A stretch of DNA of 64,000 nt, taken from positions 1,824,001-1,888,000 of the forward strand of contig CM000150.2 of assembly GCA_000004695.1 (NCBI GenBank), given 5' to 3'. Under the pieces are notes generated by a model. That model was not told where the DNA came from. It did not search any database and worked only from the letters and a program-made list of their open reading frames with translations. Position numbers and translations under genes: made by a program. Each line of letters begins with the position of its first letter. Position 1 is the first letter of the stretch. Below, in pieces: positions 2,960-63,000 of the stretch. Source of the DNA: Dictyostelium discoideum (lineage: Eukaryota).

Positions 2960-3377
2960 TTAAGCAGTGTATTCTGGAATGAAATCCTTGACGGTTTTAG
3001 TTTCAATTGGTTGAACATCCTGGGTAAAATTAAAAATTAAAAAAAAAAAAAAAAAGTTAGTTTATACCATTATAGTAGTCAATCAATAAATTATGTAATT
3101 AATTTACTTACTTTGTATGCTTTACCCATAGCTTCGAAAGCTTTTTCTCCTGCTTTTTTGAATGAGTTGGTGATTTCTACGATTTCATTTAATTGTTCTT
3201 GTTCAGCTAAATGAGATGAAATTATAATTATTAATATTAATAATTCTGAATCCATATTGAATTATTTATTATTATTATTATTGTTATTATTAACCTACTC
3301 TTTGGGGTGTATTTTAAGTTATATTTTTTGGCGATGTCAGCGTTTTTCTCGAGTAAATCTTTGATTTTTTGATCCAT
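2960..3377 (-). CDS. Small 3-exon gene encoding an ~77-aa protein: MDQKIKDLLEKNADIAKKYNLKYTPK / TEQEQLNEIVEITNSFKKAGEKAFEAMGKAYK / DVQPIETKTVKDFIPEYTA. Function unknown.
   Basis: ATG at 3375-3377. The donors are GTAGGT and GTAAGT (the latter at about 3106-3111). The acceptors are ...TTTAG and ...CCCAG. The reading frame is maintained across both introns and ends at TAA 2960-2962. The frame also stays open upstream of the ATG to a TATATAG acceptor-like site, so a further 5' exon is possible. Confidence 0.45.
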
Positions 3378-29005: not shown

Positions 29006-32000
29006 TTAATGAGATGAATTATAATGTTTATCAATTTTATTTGCCAATTCTTTACAAGTGTTTGTAGCATCACCTAATAACATTGAAGTATTTGGTTTAT
29101 AAAATACTGGATTTTGAATATCGGCATAACCAGCATTTGTTAATGAACGTTTCATAACGATACAATGTTTTGCTTTCCAAACTTCAATAACTGGCATACC
29201 AGCGATAATTGAATTTGGATCTTCAACTGATGCACTATTGACGGTATCATTTGCACCAATTACGATTGCTAAATCTATATCTTTCATTTCTGGATTAATT
29301 TCTTCCATTTCGAAAACAATGTCATATGGAACCTTTGCTTCACTTAAGCAAATATTCAAGTGACCTGGTAATCTACCTGCTACTGGATGAATACCAAATT
29401 TAACATTGTGACCTTTTTCAATTAAAGTTTTAACCATCTCTGCAACTGGATATTGACTTTTACTAACAACCATACCATAACCTGGTACAATGAGAATATT
29501 TTTAGAGTTGGTAATCATTTCACTTGCTTGATCAACATTGATTTCAGTGTGAGTACCTGTGATTTTCATTGCTTCACCTTTTCCCATACTTGATGTACCA
29601 ACACCACCTAAAATAACACTCATAAGATTTCTATTCATAGCTTTACACATGATATATGATAAGATTGCACCACTTGAACCAACAATTGCACCAACAATAT
29701 TCAATAGGGATGAATCTAACATGAAACCTTCAGCAACCAATGCCCAACCTGAATAACTATTTAATACAGTTACAACAACTGGCATATCTGGACCATTAAT
29801 TGCAGCGGTTAATAAATGACCTTGAATGAATGAAAGAATAGTGGTAGCACCTAAACATGCTAAACCTAATGTTGGATTGGTTGTTGATAAGAAAGTTGCA
29901 AAAGTAGCAACATTTGCTAATGCTAAACCAGTGTTCACTAAATGACGATTTGGAACATGATATGGTTTTGATGGTACCTTCCATTTACCAATATGACCTT
30001 GTAATTTTGCATAGGCAACAACTGAACCTGTGAATGTAATACCACCAATTAAAGCACCCAAATAAACTGAACTCTTATGAATTGTATCTAAAGCTGCAAA
30101 ATTACTATAATCAGCCAATAAAGAGGCACCTGATGCCAATACAGCTGCCATACCTACAAAACTGTGGAATGCTGCAGTGAGTTGTGGAAGTTCAGTAAAG
30201 TTTACTCTCTTTGAAAACAAATAACCAATACCACCACCAACTAAACCAACACCAGCCATTTGAGCGAGTAGAGCACTTGATACACCTAAAGAAGCAACAG
30301 TTGCACCCAAACCAATTGCAATACCACCCATACCTAAAATATTACCAAGTCTTGATGATTTTGCACTTGATAAACCACTAATTGAGAGAATACACATAAT
30401 TGAAGATGCTAAGTATGCCAATTGAGTTAGAGCTGGACCACCACTACCAACCGTTGATAAATAAGCAGCCAAGAAACCTAATGATGGTATACCGTATAGA
30501 TATTCATAGGTTGGTTTATCAGTTGGTAATTTAAACATATCCAACATTCTCTTGGTGATTGTAAAACCACCAGCAATATTAATTGATGCCATAAATACTG
30601 CAGCACTTGCTAATAGTTGACCACCAGTCGAAGGTATATAACCACCACCCATTAAATGTAAACCTGCAACTGCTACTATACCACTAATTGCATTTGTAAT
30701 TGACATTAATGGACTATGTAATGCTGGTGTAACACCCCAAACTACTTTATAACCAATTAATGCAGCCAATGAGAATGTTGTTAAATTAACCATAAAATCT
30801 GCTGGTAATCCCATTGACATTGCAACTGCACCACACATTGCTGCTGTTGCACCCAATGCTGATTTCAATGTTTTATTAAATAATGAAGTTTCTTCTTTAA
30901 CAAGATTACTCTCAACCTTTTCTTTATTACTAACAGGTGTTGATGGTGATGGTGGAGTCACTGGAACTGGTTTCTTTGGGGCTGGCCAAATTAAAGTACC
31001 ATTATAAGTTACTGTTGAACCTCTATGAACTTCATCAGTGAAATCTAATTTGAAACCATCTTTATCATTACCTAAAGATAAGAGAAACTTGGTGATATTA
31101 TTACTATAGAGTGTACTTGATTGAGTTGCCATTTTTGATGGTAAATCAGTGAAACCAATAATTGAAACACCATTATAATTATAAGCTTCGCCTGGTTTTG
31201 TTAATTCACAATTACCACCAGTTTCAGCAGCTAAATCTACAATAACACTACCTGGTTTCATTTGATCAACCATTTGTTTGGTAATTAATTTTGGAGCAGG
31301 TACACCTGGAATTAAAGCGGTTGTAATTACGATATCCACTTCTTTACATTGACGTTCAAACAATGCCATTTCAGCCTCAATGTATTCCTTTGACATGTGT
31401 TTTGCATAGCCACCTGAACCTTCTCCACTCTCTTTGATTTTCACTTCTAAAAATTCACCACCCAATGATTCAACTTGTTCTTTGGTAACAGATCTAGTAT
31501 CGAATGCTCTAACGATAGCACCAATATTTTTAGCGGTACCAATAGCAGATAAACCAGCAACACCAGCACCAATAACCAATACTTTAGCAGGCTGAACTCT
31601 ACCAGCGGCTGTAATGGCTCCACCAAAGAATCTACCAAAATAGTTGGATGCCTCCATCACTGCTTTATAACCTGCAATATTTGCCATTGATGATAAACCA
31701 TCAAAAACCTGTGCTCTACTAATTCTTGGTATACAATCAACTGCAATGGCATTAGCTTTCTTTTGTGATAGTAACTTTAAAGTTTCTGCATTTTGTGCTG
31801 GTGATAAAAAGCTAATTACTGTAGCACCTTCTTTCATCATTTCAACTTCATGTTTACCCAAGTTTGTATTAAATTGTGGACCTCTAACCTTTAGTAATAT
31901 ATCGGTTTTCTTGAATAAATTAGCTGCAGTTGTAATTTTTGCACCGGCTTCAATATATTTAGCATCAGAGAATTTTGCACCTTTACCAGCTCCTTCTTCA

Positions 32001-32295
32001 ACTAACACTTTGTAACCTTTTTTCACCAAAACTCCAACATTTTCAGGTGTCATTGATACTCTCTTTTCATTTTGATAAACTTCAGTTGGGATACCAATAG
32101 TTAATTGTTCAAATGGAATACCTTTTGCATCTTTTGTTAATTCTAATGCCATATCAATTGATGTTATTCCTTGATTCGGTGTTGTTGGTAATACACTTCC
32201 AGTTTGATCTTTTAATGTACTATAAAATAATCTATTTGTTACATTTCTTTTAATTGAAACTTTTTTTTTATTTTAGTTTTAATAAATAATTAATA

Positions 32296-37730: not shown

Positions 37731-37998
37731 CTAAAAACTTTAAAAATAATCAATTACAATAAAAAATTAAATAATAAATAAATAAAAAATTAAATAATAA
37801 ATAAATAATAAATAAATAATATTTAAAATAAAATAAAAATATAAATATAGGCTAATAATTAATAAATAAATAAATAAATAAATAATAAATAAATAATAAA
37901 TAAATAATAAATAATAAATAAATAATTAAATAAATATAATAATATAATATAATATTAAATACAGAAAAAAAAAAAAAAAAAAAAAAAAATATATAAAA

Positions 37999-39226
37999 AT
38001 GAAATCTTTTACATACATTTCATTTTTAATTTGTATATTATTCATTTTTATAAATATTGGACATGGTCAAATTTGGGAAGGTCCAAATCAAGAGTTGGGT
38101 ACATATTTTAGTTATGATAAAATGCAAGATCTTAATTATGATGTAACAAATTGGACTGTAAAAACAACAGATCACGATAGAACATATAATAGGTAAATAT
38201 TAAATAACAATTTTAATTTAACAATAACAATTTAAAAAATAATATATTAATTTCTTTATTTTTTATTTTTTATTTATAGATATGATTATTCATTTTTAAG
38301 ACTTCACCTTCGTAATACAAAATTTTTTTTTCATGGTTATATAGATGTTCATCCAAGAGTCGATGAGTTTACAACAGTTAAATTCTTAAAAAGTAAATAT
38401 TATTTCTATTTTCTATATATTTATTTTATATAAGTTAATATTAATTAAAATTTTTTTATTTTTTTATTTATTTATTTTTAGCTGGTTTTATTTATGATAA
38501 GATTAATCCAGATTATAATGGTACAGTTATGGATAGAGATAATATGTATACTCTTTCAGGTGAACTTATTGGTCTTAAAAATGTAACAACCTATACACAT
38601 CAATGGGTAAATGTTAGTAGACCATGTTGGGTAAATGGTACAAGAGCAATCAATTCACAATGTAATGGTACAACAATCGATATGAAGCCAATGAGAAATT
38701 GGTATGTTAAAGAATTACAACGTTTTAAAACTGTAAAACAAGAACCAATTCAATTACCAGAAAAGAAACTTACTGACAAAAACTCTGAAACTTTTGTATC
38801 AACTTTTGTAATCGTTATACAATTGGATGATGGTAAAATTGTTGATGCCACGTGGGATGGTGATAGGTTGCCCGAAGTCTGTAAAAAATGTGATGCTTGT
38901 ATTGATAATCAGTGTGGTGTTTATTGGGAAGATATGCCATGTGACCAATATAATGGTTGTATTTTAAAAATTATTGTTGCATGGGCTGGTAGAGATGCTT
39001 CTGGTACTAATTGTCGTTCAATTAATAGAGTAATTATTAAAATTTTATTAAAAAAAAAAAAAAAAAAAAAAACAAAAACTAATTTATAAATTTATAAATT
39101 TTATTTCAATAGATTCCATCAAATTTCCAAAGATACTCAGCAACTCCATACAAAAACATTGGTCGTAACTTTTTCGACGATTTTATGTACCGTGCTACCT
39201 ATGGCAAAGATCCAAATATTGCTTAA
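37999..39226 (+). CDS. Secreted cysteine-rich protein with a signal peptide and 4 exons: join(37999..38192, 38280..38392, 38482..39029, 39113..39226).
   Basis: The N-terminus MKSFTYISFLICILFIFINIGHG is a signal peptide. Donors are GTAAAT, GTAAAT and GTAATT. Acceptors are TTTATAG, TTTTTAG and TTTCAATAG. All junctions keep the frame. The mature part has 12 Cys (CWVNGTRAINSQCNGT..., CKKCDACIDNQCGVYWEDMPCDQYNGC) and several N-glycosylation sequons. Confidence 0.6.
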
Positions 39227-39434
39227 ACCTATCTTTTAATTATTATAATAAAAAATATTTATATTTATTCAAAATTAATTTCAACAATTACTTTAAATTT
39301 TAATTATTATTTTGCAAATTAAATTAAATGATACAATACATTACAAATTAATTTTATTAGGTTTTATAAATTTAATATTCTTGAATTTAAAATTATATAT
39401 ATAAACTACTATCATAAAAAGAAAATTCAAAAAT

Positions 39435-39506
39435 GGCTCCATAGCATAGTGGTATTGCGCTTCCCTAGTAAGGAAGAGGTCATGAGTTCGATCCTCATTG
39501 GAGCCT
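39435..39506 (+). tRNA. tRNA-Thr (anticodon AGU). No intron.
   Basis: Acceptor stem GGCTCCA/TGGAGCC. D-arm GCAT-AGTGGTAT-TGCG. Anticodon stem CTTCC/GGAAG with loop CTAGTAA (anticodon AGT). T-arm ATGAG-TTCGATC-CTCAT. 72 nt plus discriminator T. Confidence 0.9.
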
Positions 39507-39535
39507 TTTAAAATTCGATCAGGAATAGACCAAAG

Positions 39536-39749
39536 GATCGATTCTCATGCATGGATTCTCATGCATGGATTCTCATGCATGGATTCTCATGCATGGATTC
39601 TCATGCATGGATTATCATGCATGGATTCTCATGCATGGATTCTCATGCATGGATTCTCATGCATGGATTATCATGCATGGATTCTCATGCATGGATTCTC
39701 ATGCATGGATTCTCATGCATGGATTCTCATGCATGGATTCTCATGTGCG
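39536..39749. repeat. Tandem minisatellite of ~14 copies of the 15-mer GGATTCTCATGCATG. Two copies carry a C>A variant (GGATTATCATGCATG). It begins 30 bp downstream of the tRNA-Thr.
   Basis: Read directly. Each unit contains the palindrome ATGCAT/CATGCATG. The three overlapping plus-strand ORFs 39498..39788 in the track are artefacts of this repeat. Confidence 0.9.
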
Positions 39750-39916
39750 ATTATTTTTATCAATTCACATCTAGAAAAACCTAAATGAAACTAAAAAAAA
39801 TGTTTGATGAACAGTAAAAAGACATTTTCTTTTTAATTTTTTTTTAATATTTACAATTGTTTTTTATTTTCTTATTATTTTTTTTTTTTTTTTTTTTTTT
39901 ATTTAAAATTTAATTA

Positions 39917-40948
39917 TTAAATAATTTCACTGATACTTTCAAAGAAAGAAATATTTGGGAAGGTAATATTATGAGCCATTAGACATGATTGGTCAATTAT
40001 AAAAGAATTAATATCAGTGCCTTCTTGTTCAATTAATTTTGTTGGTCGGGGGCTTGATAAAATGGCACCATCATCGAATCTTACACCAATGTATAAATCA
40101 ATTGTTGAAATTTTTATTTTGCAAGATTCATTTTTATTTAAATAAAATGTTTCTGATGTTCCATTTGTTAATAGAATAATTTCATGTTCAGTTTTATTTA
40201 CCAATTCAAACTGTTTTTTTGGTGATGATATTAATTTCATAGATTTTGAAAATCTTAAAATTGGTTTATTCTTATAATTATTATTATTATTATTTTTAAA
40301 ATTAAAAAAGAAATTAGTTAATATTTTTTTATATTAAATAAATATTTATATATGATTAAAATTATACAATACAATTATAAATGGATGATGTAATAAAGTT
40401 TGTGCATCTAATCTATCAGATAAATTAGTTGCTAAACAACTATGTAAGAAATCAAATTGTTCAGTTGGTAAATCATCAGGAATATTATTTAAAGATTTAT
40501 CTATCATTTTTAATAAAATAAAACCAAAACTCCAAATATCGGATTTATGAGTAAAATTATTTGATTTTAAAACTTCAGGTGATTGATAATCTTGATTTAA
40601 AAAATTAGTTTTTGTAACACCAAAATCAATTATTTTAATTGTAAGAGTTTCTGGAAAAATAATGACATTTGAACAATTTAAATCTCTATGTACAATTTGA
40701 TGATTATCCATAAAACGTAAAGCTAATAAAATTTGTTCACAAATTTCTCTAATAACTTCTTGTGAGAAAAAATTATTATTATCAAATTTATCAATTGAAA
40801 TTCCACCATTAATTGATTCCTGATAAATTATAACATTTTTTTCACTTTTTTTTTCATCAATATCATAGTGTTTTATAATTGATGGATGATTTAATTTTTT
40901 TAATTTATAAATTTCATTTTCATTCTAATTTTGTTAAATAAAAAAATA

Positions 40949-42296: not shown

Positions 42297-42476
42297 TTAC
42301 TCTTCACTAAAACTTAAAAATTCATCTTCTTCACTTAAACTATAATCATTATCTTCTAAAACAGTATTATCTTCACCCTCTTTATTTATTTTCTTGATTC
42401 TATTACATTCACTCTCACTATAATAATTTTCTTTGTCTTCATGCTCACCCTTGTCACCATCATCTTCATCATCATC

Positions 42477-42521
<45 letters not shown>

Positions 42522-45500
42522 TTCATCCTCGTCTTCGTCTTCGTCCTCATCTTCATCATCATATTCATCTTCAGAATCTGAATGAGGTTGAATTAATCCA
42601 TTTGGATTTAAATAGTCATATTCTTGAATTTGTTGTTCTAAAACACTGATACCTTTGGAATCAATTGAGACCATTGAGTTTATTGAATGAACATATTGAC
42701 AAAATGGACCCCAAGTTCTATCTTTTTTTAAGAGTTTAGAATTACCAATTACAAATAATCCAAATTTAGCTCTTGTGAGTGCGACATTAATACGTCTACG
42801 ATCAGAAAGGAAACCAATTCTTTCGCTTCTTACACACGATAAAATTATGATATCTTTTTCTGAACCTTGAAAACCATCAATTGTTGATGTTTCAATATTT
42901 AATGGATAATTAAACTGTTTATGTTGTTCTTTGATTTCACTCTTTTGTAATTTATATGGCGTAATAATACCAAATGAGAACTTTTTACATTCTGGATAAT
43001 CTTGAACTAACTTTTTAATCAATGTGAATACCATTGTGATTTCTAATTTATTCTTTAATGATCTTTTACCACTTTCTTCTTTTGAATCAATAACATCATA
43101 GAATCTAATTGGACCATATTTGATATCTGAATGGAAATTATGTTGATTGTATACTAATGACTTTACATTATCACCATCTAATAATCTGTCTCTATAGAAT
43201 TGATTTGATGGGAATCTTGAAATTGTTGGATGCATACGATATTGAACATGTAACATTTCAACTGGTAATACTTTTGATAATCTTTCGAATAATGATATAT
43301 TTAAACCATTTTCTGCACTTTCTGTAGAGAAGATAGTTGGTGGTAATTGTAATGGATCACCAACGAGAATTAACTTTTCAATATTACCAATACATAATGG
43401 AATTATTGATGATGGTTCAGTTGATTGAGTTGATTCATCTACTAATATAATATCTGCTCTAAAGTTGTTCTTAACAGTTTCAGAACCACTTCCAGATAGA
43501 GTTGAGAAAACAATGGATGCTCTATAGATACTATCAGATTTCTCACGTTGAGTTTTATTGAAAATTGAAATACTATGACAATCTGGTGATATATTTTCCT
43601 TTTTACCAATACGTACCATATTTGGTAAATAAGGTTTACCATCTAAACCTATTAATTTCTTTTTTGAACATCTCTTTGCAATTTCATCTACTGATGCATG
43701 TGATGGACCACATACTAATATCTTGAATTCTGGATTAATTGCTAATAAAATTGAAAGTAAATAATAAATTGTTGTAGTTTTACCAGTACCTGGTGGACCT
43801 TGAATTAATGTAATACCTTTTGTTGATAATGATGTTTCAATTGAATTAAATTGTGATGTATTCAATTCTTGAATACACATGGATCTCAACAATGATGGAA
43901 TAGCCATTCTCTTTGAGGATAGTATATCGTGGTCTTTTCTTGATGGTTGTAAAATTTGATCAAATAGTATTCCAGAATTTCTAAAATCTTTTATTGCATT
44001 CAACTCTCTAATGAATGTAATGCAATTTGAAACTTTTATAAAGTATAACTTTTCTTTTATAGTATTGGAATCTTTCAAATAGTTTTTATGATTGAATGAA
44101 ATTGAATCAAACATTTCTATTATAGGATCCATTGAATCTGATGAATGAAATTTACATTTTACAATTTGTGTATTCTCTTCTAAATCAACATTTGAACAAT
44201 TGAGTACTAAACCCATTGCAAACATTGGTTCATTGGTATTATCAAATACTTTAAAAAGTAAAACATCATTATAAAATAATTCTTGGGACCCATCATTTAC
44301 ATCAATTTCAAACTTCATAATTGAATAGTCGGATATCTCTTTAAATGAGTGAATTGTTGGTCCATCAATCATCTTAATTTTATCTAAACCTATTAATGTA
44401 CCATCTTTTTCTGATATTGAAACACCTTCAATTTCATCAAATTCACCTGCAAGTTGTTTCCTATATTCCTCCACTATCAAAGGTTTCATTAAATCCATAT
44501 ATTCTTCATGATTTGAGTAACTTGATTTCAAATTTCTAATACTATTCACCTGTATTAATGGAATTCTTTCTGGACTAATCTTTAAAAATATTGATAATAT
44601 TTCGTAAGGACTCTTTAAAAAAACACTAACTAATTCACGAATTAATACAATTTTTAAAAAATTTTCATTATTATTATAATTGTTTTTATTATTATTATTA
44701 TTAAATTTATTATTTGATTTGGTTGTTGTTGTTGTAGTAGTTGTTGGTGTTGTTGTTGGTGTTGGAGTTGGTGTTGATGATGAGTTTATTAAAACCTTTT
44801 CATTTTTAATTAATTGATAAATTTCATTAAATAACAATTTTGAAATTAAGGTTAACCTTTCAGAGTTTAATAATTTAAAAGTTGGAATTTTAATAGCGGA
44901 ACGATTAATTTTTGTTTTAGATTTAAATTTTTTGATAAAACCATCAGAGAATTTACCTCTAATTAAATCTAAAAAGTTTAATTTAGTTTCATTATTTCTC
45001 TCTAATTCTAATTTCAATTGATCTGAATTTATGGGTCTAAAAGTTTTTGTTTTTTCTTTTAACTCTGAAATTTGTGAGAAATGGTTGAATTCTATCATTA
45101 CCATTAATGATAATGATTTTTGATAAATTGAATCAATATTTTCAGTATTTATATTATTTCTTTGAACCATTGAAATATCGTGTATTAATCTAATTTTTAA
45201 AACTTGAATATGCATATTAAATTGATTTTTGTTCTCATCAATTATTTTCTTTACTTGTTCTAATGATGGTTGATAAGATGGATTCAATTTTGATAATGTA
45301 TCCAATTTTCTAAAAATTAAATCTGCACTATTTGAATCTTCAAATATTAAATTTAATAAACTACGTTTCAATGGTTGGTTTATATCAAAAGTGGATGAAC
45401 CACTTTGAGGTGTTGTTGTTGTATGAGTGGTTGCGGTTGTGGTGGTTGTGGTAGGTGAAAGTGAATCTGGTTCAATCACTGATTTAGTTGAGGCAATTTT

Positions 45501-47103
45501 TTGTGGTATTTGTTTTATTGTTGGTTGGGCCTCGTTTGGTTTACCTGGATTTATTGGAGCTGGTAATGACGGTAAAGTTGTTGTTGTAGGAGTGGTTGTG
45601 GTTGTGGTTGTAGTTGTGGTTGTGGTTGTGGTTGTGGTAGGAGAAAGTGAATCCGGTTCAATCACTGATTTAGTTGAGGCAATTGTTTGTGGTATTTGTT
45701 TTATTGTTGGTTGGGCCTCATTTGGTTTACCTGGATTTATTGGAGCTGATAATGATGGTAAACTTGTTGTTGTTGTTGTTGTTGTCGGAGTGGTTGTGGT
45801 GGTGGGTCTTATTGAAGTTGTTGTGTTTGTGGTGGTTATGGTAGGTGAAAGTGAATCGGATCCAATCACTGATTTAGTTGAGGCAACTGTTTGTGGTATT
45901 TGTTTTATTGTTGGCTTGGCTTCATTTGATCTACCTTGATTTATTGGAGCTGAGAATAATGGTAAACTTGTTGCTGTCGTCGACGTTGTTGTTGTTGTTG
46001 TTGTTTTTGTTGTTTTTGGTGCATTTGAATAGATAGTATACTTTTCTGATAAAGATTTTCCTTTTCCTATTAGCTTCATACATTTTTCAAATGATTCACA
46101 AATTTTGATAAAATTTGAATCAATTAAACCATCTAAATACTCTGTAAATCTTAAATCATTGATACGATAATTTTTATTCTTTAAAACTGTTCTAAATTCA
46201 ATTAATTCTTTTTTTAATTTACTTGGAAAAATACATTTTTCAATATCTAAAAACGATATTGGCATTTCAAATTGTACAGAAGTTTCTATTTCAATTCTAC
46301 CTCTAATTTTTTGTATTCTATTTGATGTTAATCTTTTAAAAAAAAAACTAAACTCGATTAAAAAATTTAAATTACTATAATCACTATATAATTGATATAT
46401 ATTTCTTTTAATTATATCATCTTCATCTTCATCTTCACCTTCATCTTCATCTTCATCTTCATCTTTATTATTATTATTATTATTATAATATAATAAATCA
46501 TTTCTTTGAAAAAATGTAGGAAATTTAGAAGAGACATGAATTGAAGCTGTATATTTGACATTGTTGATTTTACGTAATAAAAAGAATTTTGATGAGGATT
46601 TAAGTAATACTTCTTGAATTTTACTTTGAAAAGTTGGAAAATAATTTTCAATATCCTCTAAACTATCTATTAATATTGATGAGTTTATAGTTTCAGTGGT
46701 AATTTGAGGTGTTGGTGATAAATTAATTGTTTCATTTAATTGAGTTAATAATACTCCAAGTTTTGGGTAAAGTGATTTTATATAATTTGAAACTGTTTGA
46801 TTTGGAAGAGGCAATGAGAAATCTGGAATCATATATGATTCTGTTTTATTTGTAGGAGTGAAAATATATGGTTTTGAAATTAAATTTGGATCAAAAGTAC
46901 CAATTTTTTTAAATTTTATTGAAATTCCACTTGATTTTAAATGATTTTTAAAGTCATTTATAGAATTTTTTTTTGAACTTTTTGTTTGTGAAAAATGATT
47001 CTTTAATAAATGTATTTGATAATGTACATTAAATTTTATAATGGTTTGAAATTTGATAAATTTATTAAAAAAATCACTTGATAAAATTAAATGCTCACTA
47101 ACT

Positions 47104-47198
<95 letters not shown>

Positions 47199-47670
47199 TA
47201 AAAAATTATTCTTTATTTCTTTTAATAATTTTTTTTTTAATTTTTCAATCAGAGTAGTAAAAAAATCATCTTCCAAAGCTTCAATTATAAATTCTAGTTG
47301 ATCTACACATGTTGGAAATTGGACTTTTAATTGTTTAATTGTTTCTAATTGTTTTTTGGGGTTATTACATTCTTTAAATATTAATTTTATTAGATTATTA
47401 TTATTATTATCATCATTATTATCATCATTATTATTATTATTATTATTACTATTATTATTACTATTATTATTATTGTTATTATTATTATTAATGGTATTTG
47501 TCGATGATAATTCAGATTGCGTTGGATTTATTAATGACAAAGAAGGTGACAGATTTTTGCTTTCACTAGAAAAATTAAATGAGAGTTAGAAAAATGGCAA
47601 AAAAAAAAAAAAAAAAAAAAAAATATCTAATATCAATATTTTACTCTTCTGTTTTTAAAATAGAACCCAT
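42297..47670 (-). CDS. Copy 1 of a tandem paralogous family: a large UPF1/MOV10-like SF1 helicase protein. The CDS is join(47645..47670, 42297..47565). It has an Asn-rich N-terminus, the shared N-terminal module, 3 x ~57-aa Thr/Pro-rich tandem repeats, a C-terminal helicase core and an acidic poly-Asp/Glu tail. It has NO nucleotidyltransferase domain.
   Basis: Helicase motifs were read directly: GPPGTGKT (I), VCGPSHASVDE (Ia), LVDESTQ (II), VGDPLQLPPT (III), YRMHP (IV), DGFQGSEKDIIILSCVRS (V), VALTRAKFGLFVIG (VI). The short first exon ATGGGTTCTATTTTAAAAACAGAAGA|GTAAAAT and the acceptor TTTTCTAG| at 47566-47567 restore the frame (MGSILKTED-ESKNLSPSLSLINPTQ...). The TTG 'start' at 47540 in the ORF track is internal. 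Confidence 0.75.
45430..45950. repeat. Three tandem copies of a ~175-bp coding repeat inside helicase copy 1. They encode SLPSLSAPINPGKPNEAQPTIKQIPQTIASTKSVIEPDSLSPT + poly-Thr.
   Basis: Near-identical peptide and DNA repeats were read in the 42297..47540 ORF. They are mirrored in the antisense ORF 45427..45939. Confidence 0.8.
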
Positions 47671-49354: not shown

Positions 49355-52300
49355 CTAAGAAAGTAATCCATTTGACGATAATGATAAATTCTCTTTGAAT
49401 AAATCATTAATTGTTGTTTTGGTTGATCTTAAAGAATATTCCATCATTGTGAATTCCATTAATACTCTTTGGTATGTTTTTTTAATTGATGATGCTAAAT
49501 TTCTATCATTAATAAATGGATCAAGTACAATGATATGACCTTTTACTGGTGTACCCTTTATAGTTGATCTTTTTAATAATGCTCCATTTTCACATAAACT
49601 ACCACCACCACTTGAGTGACTAATTGATATGATATTCTCTTTATAATTAAATGTTGAATAATAATAAAAGAATTGATAAAACAATTGAGCGATTGTCAAT
49701 TTGTTTCTTTTTGGTTCAAATTTGTTAAAACTTGACCAATCATAATATTTAACTAAATAATTTTCTACGATTGTTTGTGATTTTAATTTAATTAAATTTC
49801 TATCTGTTGAATACTTTTCTAATAGTTGATTTGATGTTGTTTGTAAATTTGGTAAAATTGGTGGATTTAATGACTGAAGGAAATGAATTACCATATTAAC
49901 TAAACAGAATGAACTAAATGTTTTCTCTGCTGCATTATTTAAATCTTTTGAAACTGCCCACCATTTTACTAATAATGCTAAATCTCTACATCTTTTATCA
50001 ATTGAACAATATTCACCTAACAATAATGAATTGTGATAACTCATCATAGAATGAAAGCACATATCGAAATGAATACCTGATGATATCTCTTTGAATCTAA
50101 TGATTGGTACTTTTGCACTAATTCTTTTTTCAATTAATTTATATAGTTGAGATCTATTTAAATATTTATAAACTTGTTTTAAATGAGTTGTATCTTCTTT
50201 TTGAGTACTTGAGAAATTAATATCTAAATCACTATCATTCAATGATAATCCACTCAAGAATGAACCATATAAATTAATTGATGCTGTTGCGAAACCTTCT
50301 GATATTAATTTCTTTAATCTATTATAACTATCTTGTTTAATTGATTTCTTTTTACATTCAATTTTTGAAATAATTTCATTAAGAGAATTATTTGTTTTTG
50401 ATGATGATAAAGATTGTGAAATTTCTTGTATTTCTAAATTATTTAAAACTTTCTTTAAATATGAATCCAAGAGACGTGAATATTTAACAAAACTATCTCT
50501 TAATGTTTTCTTTTTTGATAAAGTTGATTGATCTATTTTTTCTTGATTTGATTTTTGTAATTCTATAATAATATTAATAAGAGTGTTTGGAAAATCTTTA
50601 TCAATGATTAAATTATTTGAATCTGGTGAAACTGTCTCATCTTCATCATCATCATCGCTGATACTATAATATTCATCATCATCATCATCCAAATCATCAT
50701 TATCTTCACCTTCTTGATTAATTTTCTTGATTCTATTACTTTCATCATCTTCATCATGCTCTTGTATTTCTTCATTATCTTCATCTTCGTCTTCCTCTTC
50801 ATCTTTACCATCATATTCATCTTCAGAATCTGAATGGAATTCAATTAATCCATTTGGATTTAAAGAGTCATATTCTTGAATTTGTTGTTCTAAAACACTG
50901 ATACCTTTAGAATCAATTGAGACCATTGAGTTTATTGAATGAACATATTGACAAAATGGACCCCAAGTTCTATCTTTTTTTAAGAGTTTAGAATTACCAA
51001 TTACAAATAATCCAAATTTAGCTCTTGTGAGTGCGACATTAATACGTCTACGATCAGAAAGGAAACCAATTCTTTCACTTCTTACACATGATAAAATTAT
51101 AATATCTTTTTCTGAGCCTTGAACCCCATCAATTGTTGATGTTTCAATATTTAATGGATAATTAAACTGTTTATGTTGTTCTTTGATTTCACTCTTTTGT
51201 AATTTATATGGCGTAATAATACCAAATGAGAACTTTTTACATTCTGGATAATCTTGAACTAACTTTTTAATCAATGTGAATACCATTGTGATTTCTAATT
51301 TATTCTTTAATGATCTTTTACCACTTTCTTCTTTTGAATCAATAACATCATAGAATCTAATTGGACCATATTTGATATCAGAATGGAAATTATGTTGATT
51401 GTATACTAATGACTTTACATTATCACCATCTAATAATCTGTCTTTATAGAATTGATTTGATGGGAATCTTGAAATTGTTGGATGCATACGATATTGTGTA
51501 TTTAACATTTCAACTGGTAATACTTTTGATAATCTTTCAAATAATGATATATTTAAACCATTTTCTGCACTTCCTGATGAGAAAATAGTTGGTGGTAATT
51601 GTAATGGATCACCAACAAGAATTAACTTTTCAATATTACCAATACATAATGGAATTAGTGAAGCTGGTTCAGATGATTGAGTTGATTCATCTACTAATAC
51701 AATATTTGCTTTAAAGTTACTTCTAACAGAACCAGAACCACTTGCTGAAAGAGTTGAGAAAACAATATTTGCATTTCTAATAATTTCTTTTCTTTGTGCT
51801 GGTGTTTTGTCATAGGGTGATATACGATGACAATCTGGTGATATATTTTGAAGTTTACCAATACGTACCATATTTGGTAAATAAGGTTTACCATCTACAT
51901 TTATTAAACTCTTTTTTAAACATCTCTTTGCAACTTCATCTACTGATGCATGTGATGGACCACATACTAATATCTTGAATTTTGGATTAATTGCTAATAA
52001 AATTGAAAGTAAATAATAAATTGTTGTAGTTTTACCAGTACCTGGTGGACCTTGAATTAATGTAATACCTTTTTTTGATAATGATGTTTCAATTGCATTA
52101 AATTGTGATGCATTCAATTCTTGAATACAAATGGATCTTAACAATGATGGAATCTCCATTCTCATTGATGTCATTAAATTATAAACTTCCAATGATGGTT
52201 GTAAAATTTGATTTAAAAGTGTTTTTGAATTTTTAAACTCTTCTGTTGCTTCTAATTCTCTAATGAATGTAGTACTATTAGAAACCTTTATAAAATGTAA

Positions 52301-55300
52301 AATATCTTTTGAATATCTTTTCGAATTCAATGAAACTGAATAAAACTTTTCAATTAATGGTTTCGTTGAATCCGATAATACAAATTCGCAAATTATTTTT
52401 TGTTTTTTACTTTTTAATTCTGAAGATCTTGTAACTAAACTCAATGCAAACATTGGTTTATTTGTATGATCAAATGCTTTAAAAAGTAAAATATCATTAA
52501 GGTATATTTCCTCTAATTCATCCTTAACTTTAATATTAAATGTAATTTCAACAGAATCCTCCGACAACTCTTGGAATGAATGAATTGTTGGTGTATCATT
52601 CATTTTAACTCTATCTAAACCTATTAATGTACCATCTTGTTCTGATATTGAAATACCTTCAATTTCATCAAAATCACCTTCGAGTTGTGCTCTATATTCT
52701 TCTACTATTAAAGGTTTCATTAAATTTACAAATTCTGATTGGTCAGAATAACTATCTTGTAATGAATGAATATTATCAGCTTGAATTAATGGAATTCTTT
52801 CTGGATTACTCTTTAAAAATATTGACAATATCTCTTCAGAATCTTTTGAAATTACTTCAACATGATCACGAACTAAAACAACTTTTCTATTATTATTATT
52901 GTTATTTCTTGATCTTATTGTAGTTGTTGCAGTTGCTGTTCCTGTTGGGGATTTGATAAACAACTTTTCACTTTTAATTAATTGGTGAATTTCATTAAAT
53001 TGTAACTTTGAAATTAAACCTAACTTTTCAGAGTTTAATAATTTAAAAGATGGAATCTTTAAAGTTGAACCATTGATTTTTGTTGTTGATTCAAAGTTAC
53101 TGACGAGATTATCAAAGAATTTACCTTTAACTATATTTGAAAATTCTAACTTCGTTCTATTTTTTTTTGCTAATTCTGAATTCAACTGATTGTATTTGTG
53201 TCTACAAGTCTTTGTTTTTTCTTTTAATTCTGAATACTGTGAGAAATGATTAAACTCTAATAATACCATTAATGATAATGACTTGTTATATATTTTTTCA
53301 ATATTTTGATTGCTTGTATTATTTTTTTGAATCTTTGAAATATCTGTTTTTAATCTATTTTTAATAGCATTAATAGTTGAATTAAATTGAGTTATACTCT
53401 CATTGATAATATCATTCACTTGTTCAATTGATTTTTTCTTTGATGGATATGATTTAAATAATCTATCCAATGTTTTAATAATTGAATCTGCACTAGTTGA
53501 ATCTTCAAATATTAATTTCAATAAACTATGTTTCAATGATTGGTTTATATCAAATGTAGTAGTAGCAGCACTAGTATTATTAGAAGCAGATGATGCTGTA
53601 GTTGATTTATCTGTTGATGTTGTTGCAGAGGTATTTGCAGTGGTTGAGGTTGTTGTTGTTGTTGTTTTTGTTGTAGCTTTATCTTTTATAATACTAGTGG
53701 TAGTTGAAGCTGTAGGTGTTTTTGAACTTGTTGTATTAGATATTTTTTGTGAATTTGAAAGTGATAAATCTTTATAATCTAATACTAAAGATTTTATATG
53801 AATTATAAAAGATTTTATTAAAGTTCCAATTGTATTATCACTTTCATTTTTATGACCAAGTGGTAATTTAAATAATTCTACATTCATCACATATTCAGTT
53901 TTTTTAGATTTAATATTTAATTTTACTTGTTCTGGAATATAGTTTGAAATGTCTATTGATTTTTGATCAATAAATGCTTCAACTTTAATACAAAATCTTT
54001 GGTGGTGAGTATTCAATAAATTGAATGCCTCTGATCTAGAATCCAAAAAGGTTGGTGAGTTTTTAACTGTGAAATTTTTATCAAAATATTCTTTAATATA
54101 ATTTCTTTGCACTAAATTACTAAATTCAATTAATGAAATGATTGTAAAAATTGTTTCATTAATTTCATTAAATTTTGATGGATTTACACTTGATTTTAAT
54201 AATTTTCTTATATCTTTTGATGTACCAATTCTATAAGATTCAGTCTTTTTTTTGAATGGTAAAACTATGTCTTTTACCATTGATTTAATTGAATCTATTT
54301 GTAAATTAAATGTTGGATATTGATTCTTTAAACTATCAATTGCTTCTGGTTTGTTAAAAAATGTATTAAATAATGAAAATATTTGTTTTTCAATATTTGA
54401 TGGTGTCTTCAAAATTACTGTTGGTATATTTGATAATAATTCTTTTGGTGTTGATGTTGGTGTTGGTGTTGGTGTTGGTGTTGGTGTTGGTGTTGGTGTT
54501 GGTGTTGGTGTTGGTGTTGGTGTTGGTGTTGGTGTTGGAGTTGGAGTTGGAGTTGGAGTTGGTGTTGGTGTTGGTGTTGGTGTTGGTGTTAGTGTTGGTA
54601 TTGGTTGTGTTGTTGTTGTTGAGTTTGATAAAAGTTGATAATCTAAAATTAAAGATTTTATATAAATCAAATGTGATTCGATTAATGTTCCAATGGTATT
54701 ACTTTCGATATTCTTGTGACCAAGTTCTAATTTAAATAAACCAATATTAAATAAAACTTTTTTAGAATCTAATTCTAACTTCAATGGTTTTGGAACAAAT
54801 TTTGAAACAAAAGATGGATTTTGACTAATAAATTCCTCTAGATTGATTTTTGATTTTTGATATTGAGTTTCCAATAAACCAAAAGCCTCTAATTGTAAAC
54901 TTGCTTGGTGTGTGATTTTGACTATATTTTTTTCAATATATTTTTTAACACTACTTCTTTGGATTAGATTACTCAACTCTATTAATGAAATGATTGTAAC
55001 AAATATTGTTACAATTTCATCAAACTTTTTTGAATTTATCTTTGAATTCAATGATTTTTTAAGTTGATTTAATGTTGTAATTTTCACTGAATCAATATTG
55101 GTTTGACTTTCTTTTATAAAAGTTTCAACTGATAATAATTCTGATTTAAAACCTGGGTATTTTTTAATCAAACCTTGAATATCTTCTGATCTGTGGAATA
55201 ATTTATTAAAAATTGAAAAAACTACGATTTCAGTAGTTGTTGGTTTTGTTTGTTGTTGGCTATTTATAACTTTTGATACCAATGATGGTGATGTTGCTAA

Positions 55301-56273
55301 TGGTACTGTTGGTGGTGATACAGTTGTTGTTGTTGTTGCTAATGACACTGCTGGTGGTGTTATATCAATAACTGATGTAGATGATATTTTCTGTTCTATT
55401 GTAGTTGTACCTAAACATTTATTATATAATTTACAAAGGTTGATAAAGTTTGATTGAATTGAAATTGATATATCTTGAGAATCTGAAAATTTTAAATAAT
55501 TTATTTTATAATTTTTACCCTTTAAAATAAATTTGAAATCATTTGAAATTTGACGAAATTTTGATGGATAATTACATTTGAAAACCTCTGATAATGTTAT
55601 TGTTATATTTTGAGCTGACAATTGATCATAAAGCCTTTGTTTTTGATCAGCTGTGATTGATGTATCATCTGTAAATAATTTCTTTAAAATTAATCTTTGA
55701 TATAAAAAACTAAATTCAATCATAATTTTCAATGCTATAAAATCATTATAAATTTGAAAAATATCGTTATTATTATTATTACGATTGATATTATTTAATA
55801 AATTTGTTTTTTTAACTAATTTACTAAATTTATCAGAGACATCTATTGAAGAAGATGTTTTAATAATTCCAATTTTATTCTCTAAAGAAGTTTTATCATT
55901 TTCTAAAATTTCTTTAATTTTCTTAATATCGAAATTTGGAAATAATTTACAAACACCATTAATTCCATTTATGATATCTTTTAAATTACTATGCTTGAAT
56001 ATAGTTTTAAAAATATCATTTTCATTACTATTTATAATTTGTGAATTTTCAGTAATATTCAATTTGTTCATATTATTTATTATTGAATCCATTGTACTAT
56101 TGGTGTTAGTGTTGGTAGTGGTAGTGGTACTGGTGGTGGTAGTGGTACTGGTGGTGCTCGATTCTACAGTTGTTTTTGTTTTTTCTGGTACGCTTTGAGA
56201 AATTGGATTGTTATTATTTGATGAAGGTGGTGGTGGTGGTGGTGGTGAAGTTGATGAATTTGGAATATTTTCC

Positions 56274-57041: not shown

Positions 57042-60000
57042 TTAAGAAAGTAATCCATTTGACGATAATGATAAATTCTCTTTGAATAAATCATTAATTG
57101 TTGATTTGGTTGATCTTAAAGAATATTCCATCATTATGAATTCCATTAATACTCTTTGGTATGTTTTTTTAATTGATGATGCTAAATTTCTATCATTAAT
57201 AAATGGATCAAGTACAATGATATGGTCTCTTACAGCTCTACTCCTTATATTTGATCTTTTTAATAATGCTCCATTTTCACATAAACTACCACCACCACTT
57301 GAGTGACTAATTGATATGATATTCTCTTTATAATTAAATGTTGAATAATAATAAAAGAATTGATAAAACAATTGAGCGATTGTCAATTTGTTTCTTTTTG
57401 GTTCAAATTTGTTAAAACTTGACCAATCATAATATTTAACTAAATAATTTTCTACGATTGTTTGTGATTTTAATTTAATTAAATTTCTATTTGTTGAATA
57501 CTTTTCTAAGAGTTGATTTGATGTTGTTTGTAAATTTGGTAAAATTGGTGGATTTAATGATTGAAGGAAATGGATTACCATATTAACTAAACAGAATGAA
57601 CTAAATGTTTTCTCTGCTGCATTATTTAAATCTTTTGAAACTGCCCACCATTTTACTAATAATACTAAATCTCTACTTCTATTATCGATTGAACAATATT
57701 CGCCTAACAATAATGAATTGTGATAACTCATCATTGAATTAAAACACATATCGAAATGAACACCTGATGATATCTCTTTGAATCTAATGATAGGTACTTT
57801 TGCATCCGTTCTTTTTTCAATTAATTTATATAGTTGAGATCTATTTAAATATTTATAAACTTGTTTTAAATGAGTTGTATCTTCTTTTTGAGTACTTGAG
57901 AAATTAATATCTAAATCACTATCATTCAATGATAATCCACTCAAGAATGAACCATATAAATTAATTGATGCTGTTGCGAAACCTTCTGATATTAATTTCT
58001 TTAATCTATTATAACTATCTTGTTTAATTGATTTCTTTTTACATTCAATTTTTGAAATAATTTCATTAAGAGATTTATTTATATTTGATGAGGATGATGA
58101 TAAAGATTGTGAAATTTCTTGTATTTCTAAATTATTTAAAACTTTCTTTAAATATGGATCCAAGAAACGTGAGTGTTTTATAAAATTATCTCTTAATTTT
58201 TTCTTTTTTGATAAAGTTGATTGATCTATTTTTTCTTGATTTGATTTTTGTAATTCTATAATAATATTAATGAGAGCATTTGGAAAATCTTTATCAATGA
58301 CTAAATTATTTGTATCAAATACTTCTTCATCTTCATCATACTCTTCGCTGATACTATGATATTCTTCATCACCATGCTCATTATCATCATCATCATCATC
58401 CTCCAAATCATCATTATCTTCACCTTCTTGATTAATTTTCTTGATTCTATTACTTTCATCATCTTCATCATGCTCTTGTATTTCTTCATTATCTTCATCT
58501 TCGTCTTCCTCTTCATCTTCACTATCATCATAGTCATCTTCAGAATCTGAATGGAATTCAATTAATCCATTTGGATTTAAAGAGTCATATTCTTGAATTT
58601 GTTGTTCTAAAACACTGATACCTTTAGAATCAATTGAGACCATTGAGTTTATTGAATGAACATATTGGCAAAATGGACCCCAAGTTCTATCTTTTTTTAA
58701 GAGTTTAGAATTACCAATTACAAATAATCCAAATTTAGCTCTTGTGAGTGCGACATTAATACGTCTACGATCAGAAAGGAAACCAATTCTTTCGCTTCTT
58801 ACACACGATAAAATTATGATATCTTTTTCTGAACCTTGAACTCCATCAATTGTTGATGTTTCAATATTTAATGGATAGTTAAACTGTTTATGTTGTTCTT
58901 TGATTTCACTCTTTTGTAATTTGTATGGTGTAATAATACCAAATGAGAACTTTTTACATTCTGGATAATCTTGAACTAACTTTTTAATCAATGTAAATAC
59001 CATTGTGATTTCTAATTTATTCTTTAATGATCTTTTACCACTTTCTTCTTTTGAATCAATAACATCATAGAATCTAATTGGACCATATTTGATATCTGAA
59101 TGGAAATTATGTTGATTGTATACTAATGACTTTACATTATCACCATCTAATAATCTGTCTTTATAGAATTGATTTGATGGGAATCTTGAAATTGTTGGAT
59201 GCATACGATATTGTGTATTTAACATTTCAACAGGTAATACTTTTGATAATCTTTCAAATAATGATATATTTAAACCATTTTTTGCACTTTCTGATGAGAA
59301 AATAGTTGGTGGTAATTGTAATGGATCACCAACAAGAATTAACTTTTCAATATTACCAATACATAATGGAATTAGTGAAGCTGGTTCAGATGATTGAGTT
59401 GATTCATCTACTAATACAATATTTGCTTTAAAGTTACTTCTTATTGGTTTAGAACCACTTGCTGATAGAGTTGCGAAAATAATAGTTGCATTTCTAATAA
59501 TTGCTTTTCTTTGTGCTGGTGTTTTATCAAAAAGTGATATACGATGACAATCTGGTGATATATTTTGAAGTTTACCAATACGTACCATATTTGGTAAATA
59601 AGGTTTACCATCTATATTAACTAAACTCTTTTTCAAACATCTCTTTGCAACTTCATCTACTGATGCATGTGATGGACCACATACTAATATCTTGAATTTT
59701 GGGTTAATTGCTAATAAAATTGAAAGTAAATAATAAATTGTTGTAGTTTTACCAGTACCTGGTGGACCTTGAATTAATGTAATACCTTTTGTTGATAATG
59801 ATGTTTCAACTGCACTAAATTGTGATGTATTCAATTCTTGAATACACATGGATCTCAACAATGATGGAATCTCCATTCTCATTGATGTCATTAAATTATA
59901 AACTTCCAATGATGGTTGTAAAATTTGATTTAAAAGTGTTTTTGAATTTTTAAATATTTCCGGTGCTTCTAATTCTCTAATAAATGTAGTACTATTAGAA

Positions 60001-63000
60001 ACCTTTATAAAATGTAAAATATCTTTTGAAGTTTTCGAATTCAACGAAACTGAATAAAACTTTTCAATTAATGGTTTCGTTGAATCCGATAATACAAATT
60101 CGCAAATAATTATTTGTTTTTTACCCTTTAAAACTGAATTTGATGTTACTAACCCCAATGCAAACATTGGTTTACTAGTATGATCAAATGTTTTAAAAAG
60201 TAAAATATCATTAAGGTATATTTCCTCTAATTCATCCTTAACCTTAATATTAAATTTAATTGCAACCAAATCCTCTGACAACTCTCGGAATGAATGAATT
60301 GTTGGTGTATCATTCATCTTAACTCTATCTAAACCTATTAATGTACCATCTTGCTCTGAAATTGAAACACCTTCAATTTCATTAAAATCACCTTCGAGTT
60401 GTGCTCTATATTCTTCTACTATTAAAGGTTTCATTAAATTTACAAATTCTGATTGGTCAGAATAACTATCTTGTAATGAATGAATATTATCAGCTTGAAT
60501 TAATGGAATTCTTTCTGGACTACTCTTTAAAAATATTGATAATATCTCTTCAGAATCTTTTGAAATTACTTCAACATGATCACGAACTAAAACAACTTTT
60601 CCATTATTATTATTATTATTATTACTATTATTGTTATTTCTTGATCTTATTGTAGTTGTTCCTGTTGAGGAGTTGACAAACAACTTTTCACTTTTAATTA
60701 ATTGATAAATTTCATTAAATTGTAACTTTGAAATTAAACCTAACTTTTCAGAATTTAATAATTTAAAAGATGGAATCTTTAAAGTTGAACCATTGATTTT
60801 TGTTGTTGATTCAAAGTTACTGACGAGATTATCAAAGAATTTACCTTTAACTATATCTGAAAATTCTAATTTCATTTTATTATTTTTTGCTAATTCTGAA
60901 TTCAATTGATTGAGGTATTGTCTACAAGTCTTTGTTTTTTCTCTTAATTCTGAATACTGTGAGAAATGATTAAACTCTAATAATACCATTAATGATAATG
61001 ACTTGTTATATATTTTTTCAATATTTTGATTGCTTGTATTATTTTTTTGAATCTTTGAAAAATCTGTTTTTAATCTATGTTTAATACCATTAATATTTGT
61101 ATTAAATTGAATTTTACTCTCATTGATTATATTCCTAACTTGTTTAATTGATTCTTTGTTATAAGGATGTGATTGTGATAATCTATCCAATGTTTTAATA
61201 ATTGAATCTGCACTATTAGAATCTTCAAATATTAATTTCAATAAACTATGTTTCAATGAATGGTCATTCTCAAATGTTGTAGTAGTATTATTATTAGAAC
61301 TAGGTGATGGTACTATTGATATTTGTGATGTTGTTGTTGGTGATGGTGCTGTTGTTGTAGCTTTATCTTTTATAATACTAATGGTAGCTGAAGCTGTGGG
61401 TGTTGTTGAACTTGTTGTATTAGATATTTTTTGTGAATTTGAAAGTGATAAATCTTTATAATCCAACACTAAAGATTTTATATAAATAATAAAAGATTTT
61501 ATTAAAGTTCCAATTGTATTATCACTTTGATTTTTATGACCAAGTGGTAATTTAAATAACTCTACATTCATCGTATATTCAGTTTTTTTAGATTTAGATT
61601 TAATATTTAATTCTACTTGTTCTGGAATATAGTTTAAAATATCTATTGATTTTTGATCAATAAATGCTTCAACTTTAATACAAAATCTTTGGTGGTGAAT
61701 ATTCAATAAATTGAATGCCTCTAATTTAAAATTCAAAATATCTTGTGAGTTTTCAACTGTGAAATTTTTATCAAAATATTCTTTAATATAATTTCTTTGA
61801 GAAAGATTACTAAATTCAATTAATGAAATGATTGTAAAAATTGTTTCATTAATTTCATTAAACTTTGATGGATTTACACTTGATATTAATAATTCCTGTA
61901 CAGCTTTTGATGTATTGTTTTTATGAAATTCAATCTTTCTTTTGAATAATGAAATTATATCCTTAGTCGCTGATTTAATTAAACCAATTTGTAAATTAAA
62001 TGCTGGATATTGATTCTTTAAACTATCAATTTCCTCTGGTTTATTAAAAAATGTATTAAATAATGAAAATATTTGTTTTTCAATATTTGATGGTTTCTTC
62101 AAAATTACTGTTGGTATATTTGATAATAACTCTTTTGGTGTTGTTGGTGTTGGTGTTGGTATTGGTGTTGGTGTTGGTGTTGATGTTGGTGTTGGAGTTG
62201 GAGTTGATGTTGGTGTTGGTGTTGATGTTGGTGTTGGTGTTGATGTTGACGTTGGAGTTGTGATTGTTGGTGGTGGTACTGGTACTGGTACTGGTTTTAT
62301 TTCTGTTGGTGATGCTGTTGTTGTAGTTGTTGAGTCTGATAAAAGTTGATAATCTAAAATTAAAGATTTTATATAAATCAAATGTGATCCGATTAATTGT
62401 CCAATGGTATTACTATCGTTATTTTTGTGACCAATTTGTAATTTAAATAAATCAATGTTAAATAAAACTTTTTCAGATTTTAATTCTAATTTCGATGGTA
62501 CTGGAACGAAATCTAAAACATTAGATGATATAGTTTGACTAATGAGTTTTTCTAAATCAATTTTTAAACTTTGATGTTGAATTTCTAATAAATTGAAAAG
62601 CGATGGATGTATTCTCTTTGGATTGGGTAAATGTTTTTTAAGAGTAATTCTTTGGTAAAGATTACTAAACTCTATTAATAAAACGATAGTAACTAGTGTA
62701 GTTTTAATTTCTTCAAATTTTATAAAGTTAATCTTTGAATCCAATGATTTTTTAAGTTGATTTAATGTTGTAATTTTCACTGAATCTATGATACTTTGAA
62801 ATGATGTTTGGTTTTCTTTTATAATTGTTTCAACTGATAATAATTCAAATTCAAAGATTGAGTGTTTTTTAATCAAATCTTGAATACCTTCTAATTTGTA
62901 GAAAATTTTATAAAAAATTGAAAAAACTATGATTTCAGTAGTTGTTGGTTCCATTGTGAATATTGTTGATGATGATGATGATTCCACTGTTGGTGATTTT

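Follow-up and report, generated by a model that had tools for sequence, protein, structure and literature searches.

A 14-bp minisatellite downstream of a tRNA-Thr(AGU) gene in an intergenic gap of Dictyostelium discoideum

The locus and its surroundings

In the stretch of Dictyostelium discoideum DNA that was analysed (64,000 nt in full length, hereafter the window), a tRNA-Thr(AGU) gene and a tandem array of short units lie together in a gap of 690 bp. Two protein genes converge on this gap, and their stop codons form its borders:

39224..39226, plus strand: stop codon TAA of the upstream multi-exon gene, read from the sequence, with AATAAA at 39247
39917..39919, minus strand: stop codon of the convergent protein-kinase gene, from the open reading frames (ORFs), with exons at 40346-40711 and, as the last one, 39917-40240

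The kinase exon encodes a Pkinase domain (E=8.5e-20); a protein search with the upstream neighbour gene returned no detectable homologue. For the kinase gene, AATAAA is found on the minus strand at 39863 and 39898, ahead of the array, and the plus-strand signal of the upstream gene precedes the tRNA.

The window as a whole has a GC content of 23%, with long homopolymer runs and with FNIP-repeat and asparagine-rich ORFs; together with the best helicase match, which is to “Dictyostelium cf. discoideum”, these features mark it as dictyostelid DNA. Tandem repeats are very abundant, the Tandem Repeats Finder (TRF) output having 349 rows for the 64 kb; among the arrays with a TRF score of at least 200, the one beside the tRNA gene is alone in being both intergenic and not AT-rich; the rest either have AT-rich sequence or lie in ORFs, with periods that are multiples of 3. 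An AT-rich array of an 11-bp unit (AAATAATAAAT, 23 copies, followed by an A run) occupies 37744-38005, immediately upstream of the start codon (37999) of the plus-strand gene.

As to the other genes of the window, two large ORFs on the same strand, 42297-47540 (minus, 1747 aa) and 49355-56092 (minus, 2245 aa), both encode SEN1/MAA3-type helicase domains and match one helicase of “Dictyostelium cf. discoideum” at 57-59% identity, which suggests a tandem pair of paralogues. The 1747-aa ORF contains, at 45439-46013, about three copies of a 186-nt coding tandem repeat, the corresponding 62 residues being rich in threonine and proline and including PTIKQIPQ. A third long ORF, 57042-63992 (minus), extends close to the window's end, and a single uninterrupted ORF at 29006-32152 (minus) encodes a full-length fused NAD(P) transhydrogenase with AlaDh_PNT_N, AlaDh_PNT_C, PNTB_4TM and PNTB domains. 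By exact sequence, none of eight large ORFs of the window is present in a collection of 15 billion proteins.

The tRNA gene and its Pol III signals

The tRNA gene is the only one that ARAGORN finds in the window; together with the T runs behind it, it is placed as follows:

39435..39506, plus strand: tRNA-Thr(AGU) gene, from ARAGORN (anticodon AGT) and Rfam RF00005
39506..39509, plus strand: TTTT run, likely Pol III terminator, from a scan for T runs; it starts at the last base of the tRNA and thus includes the discriminator base
39754..39758, plus strand: next run of at least four Ts (T5), from the same scan, 9 nt beyond the array

The match to RF00005 is full length (model positions 1-71) and scores 66.4 bits, the gathering score being 29. 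The A box, TAGCATAGTGG, is of the consensus type (TRGCNNAGTGG); the B box, GTTCGATCC at 39486-39494, is the sole exact match to GTTCRAnYC in the window, and a GTC signature, typical of internal B boxes (PMC3159450), is found 5-7 nt upstream of its core. There is neither an intron nor an encoded CCA. With a covariance score above threshold, an assignable anticodon, both internal boxes and a T run, the gene has what is expected of a eukaryotic nuclear tRNA gene and shows no sign of being a pseudogene; it is intact and presumably active, and the preliminary description was right in calling it canonical. A TATA-like stretch, TATATATAAA, is located at 39396-39405, that is, -39 to -30 from the start of the tRNA, and may be due to chance in DNA so AT-rich. 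A scan for bacterial promoters and terminators, which are not relevant to a eukaryote, gave nothing better than was obtained with shuffled sequences.

Pol III terminates at runs of at least four Ts, and the TTTT at 39506-39509 is likely to be the terminator of the gene. The array had been placed in the zone of the Pol III terminator and the external B box; within the terminator it is not, as the TTTT directly adjoins the 3' end of the tRNA and the array starts 33 nt later. Read-through of Pol III, if it occurs, would end at 39754-39758, and, because no run of at least four Ts is found before that position, such a transcript would cover the whole array.

Anatomy of the array

The array and its two deviating units were located by TRF, by pattern search and by listing the units:

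39540..39745, plus strand: minisatellite with the 14-bp unit GATTCTCATGCATG, from TRF, pattern search and unit listing
39610..39623, plus strand: variant unit 6, GATTATCATGCATG (C>A), from pattern search (15-mer match at 39609) and unit listing
39666..39679, plus strand: variant unit 10, GATTATCATGCATG with the same C>A as unit 6, from pattern search (15-mer match at 39665) and unit listing

According to TRF the period is 14, with 14.7 copies, 97% matches, no indels and a score of 398; the 206 bp comprise 14 full units and a truncated fifteenth (GATTCTCATG/TGCG) and have a GC content of 42%. Relative to the tRNA the array spans +34 to +239, in agreement with the earlier statement that it begins about 30 bp downstream. 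It had been described as a perfect array of a 15-bp unit in 14 copies. The tandem array and the count of full units stand, and the period does not: the 15-mer, searched with at most two mismatches, matches 14 times in the window (0.05 expected), every time inside the array, but the matches follow each other at 14 nt, neighbours having one G in common, so that the true period is 14. Nor is the array perfect, given the two variant units and the truncated last one. The two identical C>A units had been noticed correctly; units 6 and 10 are separated by 56 bp, that is, by four units, and their shared C>A points to at least one step of duplication or conversion that involved a block of this size rather than a single unit. 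Likewise, the palindromes are where they had been reported to be, as all 14 octamers CATGCATG of the window, each an 8-bp palindrome, lie evenly spaced within the array. Near-perfect copies, the lack of indels and the duplicated variant unit fit recent slippage or unequal exchange, with at least one step of four units.

ORFs of 75-96 codons cross the array, because its unit is free of stop codons in every frame of the plus strand. A coding array was considered and rejected: the period is not divisible by 3 and searches with these ORFs yielded only 14-residue-periodic translations of unrelated repeats. No real homologues of the array ORFs were found, a first protein search having given three spurious matches. 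Convergent stop codons on either side, the period and the lack of genuine ORF homologues thus put the array outside genes and in non-coding DNA, and with units arranged head to tail, a unit length within about 10-100 bp and several copies it is a minisatellite in the usual meaning of the word.

That the array, or its copy number, is an artefact of assembly (collapse or expansion of a short repeat) was weighed as well. Short-read contigs of other isolates, from Logan, carry the downstream neighbour ORF (L001-L003; 99.7% identical, with L001 differing at 3 of 1085 positions); they come from SRR26869256, SRR26869267 and SRR28564542, the only runs found to carry it, and all are of the same species. 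These contigs stop in a poly-T tract at 39879, short of the array, and the array did not turn up in any independent assembly, which would leave room for an artefact. Against it stand the two variant units and the truncated last one, an internal structure that, like the clean and unique junctions at either end, is typical of real sequence, and also the length of 206 bp, which is within a single read on most platforms; an artefact is therefore hardly credible.

Copies and relatives elsewhere

No further copy of the unit exists in the 64-kb window, even if two mismatches are allowed, and the unit is likewise absent from the three Logan contigs and from a fourth locus (L004), which carries the helicase of “Dictyostelium cf. 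discoideum” (57% match to the helicase of the window). The latter was examined as an ortholog of the locus and rejected, as it contains neither a tRNA nor the array and is not syntenic with the flanks of the tRNA, and both helicase paralogues of the window match it about equally well. Neither the upstream ORFs nor those of the array gave a match in exact look-ups. A 28-mer of two units has zero exact matches in collections of metagenomes, prokaryote genomes and viruses, and the 3' end of the tRNA joined to one unit has zero exact matches in metagenomes; the source genome is not among these collections.

One close relative (P0126) was found in an exhaustive HMMER search with the translation of the array. 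Its DNA is part of ENA ERZ26693861, contig ctg137242_8x_l (L005), in which positions 3100-3290 are made up of 13.6 copies of a 14-bp unit, GATTGTCATGCATG, at 98% identity; this unit is one base off GATTCTCATGCATG. The contig is eukaryotic and unrelated (41.5% GC), the flanks of its array have no similarity to the window, and no tRNA was detected in the 6.3 kb that were fetched, hence none within 3 kb of the array. It also contains a (TC)32 microsatellite (2871-2935) and a 50-bp x 14 array (2-706). As both the flanks and the genome are unrelated, the likeness is convergent or coincidental and not homologous. A nearly identical array without a tRNA implies that this type of sequence expands without the context of a tRNA gene, which weakens any reading that ties the sequence of the array to Pol III.

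External B-box candidates in the spacer

In D. discoideum, 66% of the tRNA genes are followed, about 41 bp downstream, by an external B box (ex-B box) with the core GTTCRAnYC (PMC3159450). Two candidates follow the tRNA gene, the second of them reaching into the first unit of the array:

39513..39521, plus strand: weak B-box-like motif ATTCGATCA, two mismatches to GTTCRAnYC, read from the sequence and missing from the list of matches with at most one mismatch; it is the candidate of the preliminary description
39536..39544, plus strand: best candidate, GATCGATTC, one mismatch, from a motif search, 30 nt after the end of the tRNA

The spacer had been said to resemble an external B box, which is right insofar as a B-box-like motif is present in the zone of these boxes; the stretch originally pointed out, TTCGATCAGG, has two mismatches to the core and yields to GATCGATTC, and even matches with one mismatch are common by chance. 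The mismatch of GATCGATTC falls at the position of the core equivalent to T54. Matches with at most one mismatch number 86 in the window (about 40 of them on the plus strand) versus 122 in shuffled sequences, fewer than chance would give, and with a probability of about 4% one would be met within 60 nt on the strand of the tRNA. When extended to TCGATTCTCAT, the motif shares 10 of 11 positions with the T-arm of the tRNA itself, TCGATCCTCAT; this alignment score was reached by 66 of 2000 shuffles and by 12 of 567 GC-matched segments of the window (p about 0.02-0.03). An ex-B box at 39536 is, on these statistically weak grounds, plausible and unproven.

Repeat unit 1 begins with the last five bases of GATCGATTC. 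The array seems to have arisen from this motif or directly next to it. Later units retain only GATTCTCAT; lacking the TCGA core they are not B boxes, and binding of TFIIIC to them is unlikely. In the literature searched on external B boxes of Dictyostelium a tandem array fused to such a box is not described, and no link of CATGCATG, or of a minisatellite, to Dictyostelium tRNA genes was found in the literature searched.

The array might be a by-product of the tRNA gene with no function of its own, if stable Pol III/TFIIIC complexes on the tRNA gene and on an external B box pause replication forks and cause slippage in the adjacent DNA. This would agree with the start of the array inside the best B-box-like motif, which is found 30 nt past the tRNA, and with the fact that the only intergenic array in 64 kb that is not AT-rich (among those scoring at least 200) adjoins the only tRNA gene; the array is locally distinctive and its position, 33 nt from that gene, may not be coincidence. 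A corresponding mechanism, with Pol III complexes as fork barriers, has been proposed for the tRNA-linked repeats of Entamoeba (PMC2652664). The evidence is that of one locus, however, the ex-B identity is weak statistically, and a nearly identical array exists without a tRNA within 3 kb; such an origin is, on balance, unlikely.

Hairpin potential

Two octamers with the bases between them (CATGCATG-GATTCT-CATGCATG) are self-complementary at 16 of 22 positions, and the arms of the inverted repeat are 73% complementary. As single-stranded DNA, the spacer and the array fold with -63 kcal/mol (z = -7.7; none of 200 shuffles is as good), and the tRNA with its trailer folds, as RNA, with -138 kcal/mol (z = -7.0).

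The latter value is of interest for a functional array, whose CATGCATG palindromes could bind a protein or form a boundary element, or which could be the template of a read-through hairpin trailer that feeds small-RNA pathways or adjusts how Pol III terminates and is recycled at the tRNA gene. A terminator of just four Ts, with the next such run at 39754, 9 nt past the array, would be compatible with read-through, and 14 evenly spaced 8-bp palindromes with binding of a protein. Both the absence of T runs and the hairpin, though, follow from the repetition of a unit that is itself free of T runs and self-complementary. No factor of Dictyostelium for CATGCATG was found in the literature search, the units without the TCGA core are poor prospects for TFIIIC, and the high identity of the copies and the duplication of a block look like recent neutral expansion, all of which makes a function of the array very unlikely. 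Nothing positive was found for the functions first suggested, a protein-binding array and an effect on termination, or for a scar of integration or excision.

Search for mobile elements

The zone behind tRNA genes is where retrotransposons of Dictyostelium integrate, at a distance of about 100 bp in the case of TRE3 and, depending on the species, of 7-136 bp in that of Skipper-2 (PMC5006619). The 690-bp gap is fully accounted for by the tRNA, the spacer, the array and AT-rich DNA; no part of a retroelement (ORF, LTR or poly(A) tail) was found in it, nor any target-site duplication around the array, where direct repeats do not go beyond AT-rich, low-complexity similarity. The locus thus has none of the marks of a remnant of the tRNA-targeting elements TRE3, Skipper-2, DGLT-A or TRE5, as judged by structure (ORF, LTR, poly(A) tail and flanking direct repeats), and the earlier remark that no retroelement is present here is borne out by the contents of the gap and by the lack of a clean flanking direct repeat.

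The base composition is less plain. GC is 0.33 in the spacer and 0.235 in the 85 nt after the array versus 0.04-0.11 in the adjoining intergenic DNA, so that it is raised across 39507-39830, which could reflect a constraint related to Pol III, or descent from elsewhere, for instance through an old insertion. Either that whole segment or the array alone might then be the remnant of a mobile element: a severely truncated non-LTR copy with a 3' tail of tandem repeats, or a decayed insertion of the Skipper-2/TRE3 type. Some non-LTR families in other organisms do end in short tandem repeats, and with its span of +34 to +239 the array covers the zones of integration of TRE3 and Skipper-2 (PMC5006619). 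However, TRE elements end in poly(A) (PMC5006619), the parts of an element and a clean target-site duplication are missing, and the unit has no second copy in 64 kb; taken together, descent from a mobile element is most improbable.

Proposed origin and significance

We consider the array to be an ordinary young non-coding minisatellite beside an intact tRNA-Thr(AGU) gene, a neutral product of slippage in a harmless gap, with a probability of about 0.7; it is best read as a lineage-specific, hairpin-prone array that was seeded at, or next to, an ex-B-like site. We infer slippage as the mechanism and neutrality of the product, and in the same manner the ex-B identity of the motif and any contribution of Pol III to the instability. 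The seed would have been a single stretch of 14 nt, at or next to the motif that resembles an external B box and follows the tRNA after about 30 nt; this motif may be a degenerate copy of the tRNA's own T-arm. Duplication of the 14-nt stretch, then replication slippage or unequal exchange, would have raised the number of copies to about 15, with at least one step of expansion moving a block of four units (56 bp). Hairpin-forming repeats are classic substrates of replication slippage, and the self-complementarity of the unit, by which a displaced strand can fold into a hairpin, may have aided the expansion. Recent expansion is suggested by the high identity of the copies. Located between convergent genes and beyond the tRNA's own terminator, the array could grow without harm, and most likely it has no function of its own.

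A bolder proposal would make the array a consequence or a tool of Pol III biology. Either the TFIIIC-bound ex-B box and the complex on the tRNA gene would systematically give rise to tandem repeats behind the tRNA genes of dictyostelids, which would be the dispersed equivalent of those in Entamoeba, or weak termination at four Ts would produce a hairpin trailer of about 250 nt that enters a small-RNA pathway or buffers the landing zone of TRE3 and Skipper-2. We regard this as decidedly improbable.

If the neutral minisatellite is taken as it stands, it is one more tandem repeat in a repeat-filled genome, beside a normal tRNA gene, and matters little. Should its copy number vary, it would be a polymorphic marker for the typing of isolates, as tRNA-linked repeats are in Entamoeba; should repeats prove to be enriched at ex-B boxes throughout the genome, Pol III complexes would be linked to local instability of repeats in a second amoebozoan lineage. 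Interest in the array would also rise if a read-through hairpin RNA were made from it.

Comparison with known systems

Among generic minisatellites the array of contig ctg137242_8x_l is the closest in kind: both are non-coding and palindrome-bearing and consist of 14-bp units arranged head to tail, in 14.7 versus 13.6 copies that are 97-98% identical. They differ in that the latter belongs to an unrelated genome, has no tRNA within 3 kb and shares nothing in its flanks with the locus described here.

With the external B boxes of Dictyostelium, GATCGATTC has in common that it is found on the strand of the tRNA, 30 nt past it and in the zone reported for these boxes; like them it lacks the GTC signature, which the internal B box has. 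It deviates from the core at one position, and the window has no more matches as good as this one than chance would produce. As for the landing zones of TRE3 and Skipper-2, the array lies where these elements integrate, starting tens of bp past the tRNA and extending to about 240 bp, but the locus is devoid of retroelement sequence and shows neither an LTR nor a poly(A) tail nor a target-site duplication.

The tRNA-linked repeats of Entamoeba histolytica and E. dispar are short tandem repeats that flank tRNA genes, with units of 7-12 bp and of up to 44 bp; slippage, perhaps aided by Pol III complexes that act as fork barriers, has been proposed for their origin, and no function is known for them (PMC2652664). 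Theirs are found between the tRNA genes of units which in turn form tandem arrays, whereas here one dispersed tRNA gene in 64 kb, with no higher-order repeat that contains it, is accompanied by one simple array without sequence similarity to those of Entamoeba. What the two have in common is the amoebozoan host and the arrangement of short units in tandem in the DNA that flanks a tRNA gene.
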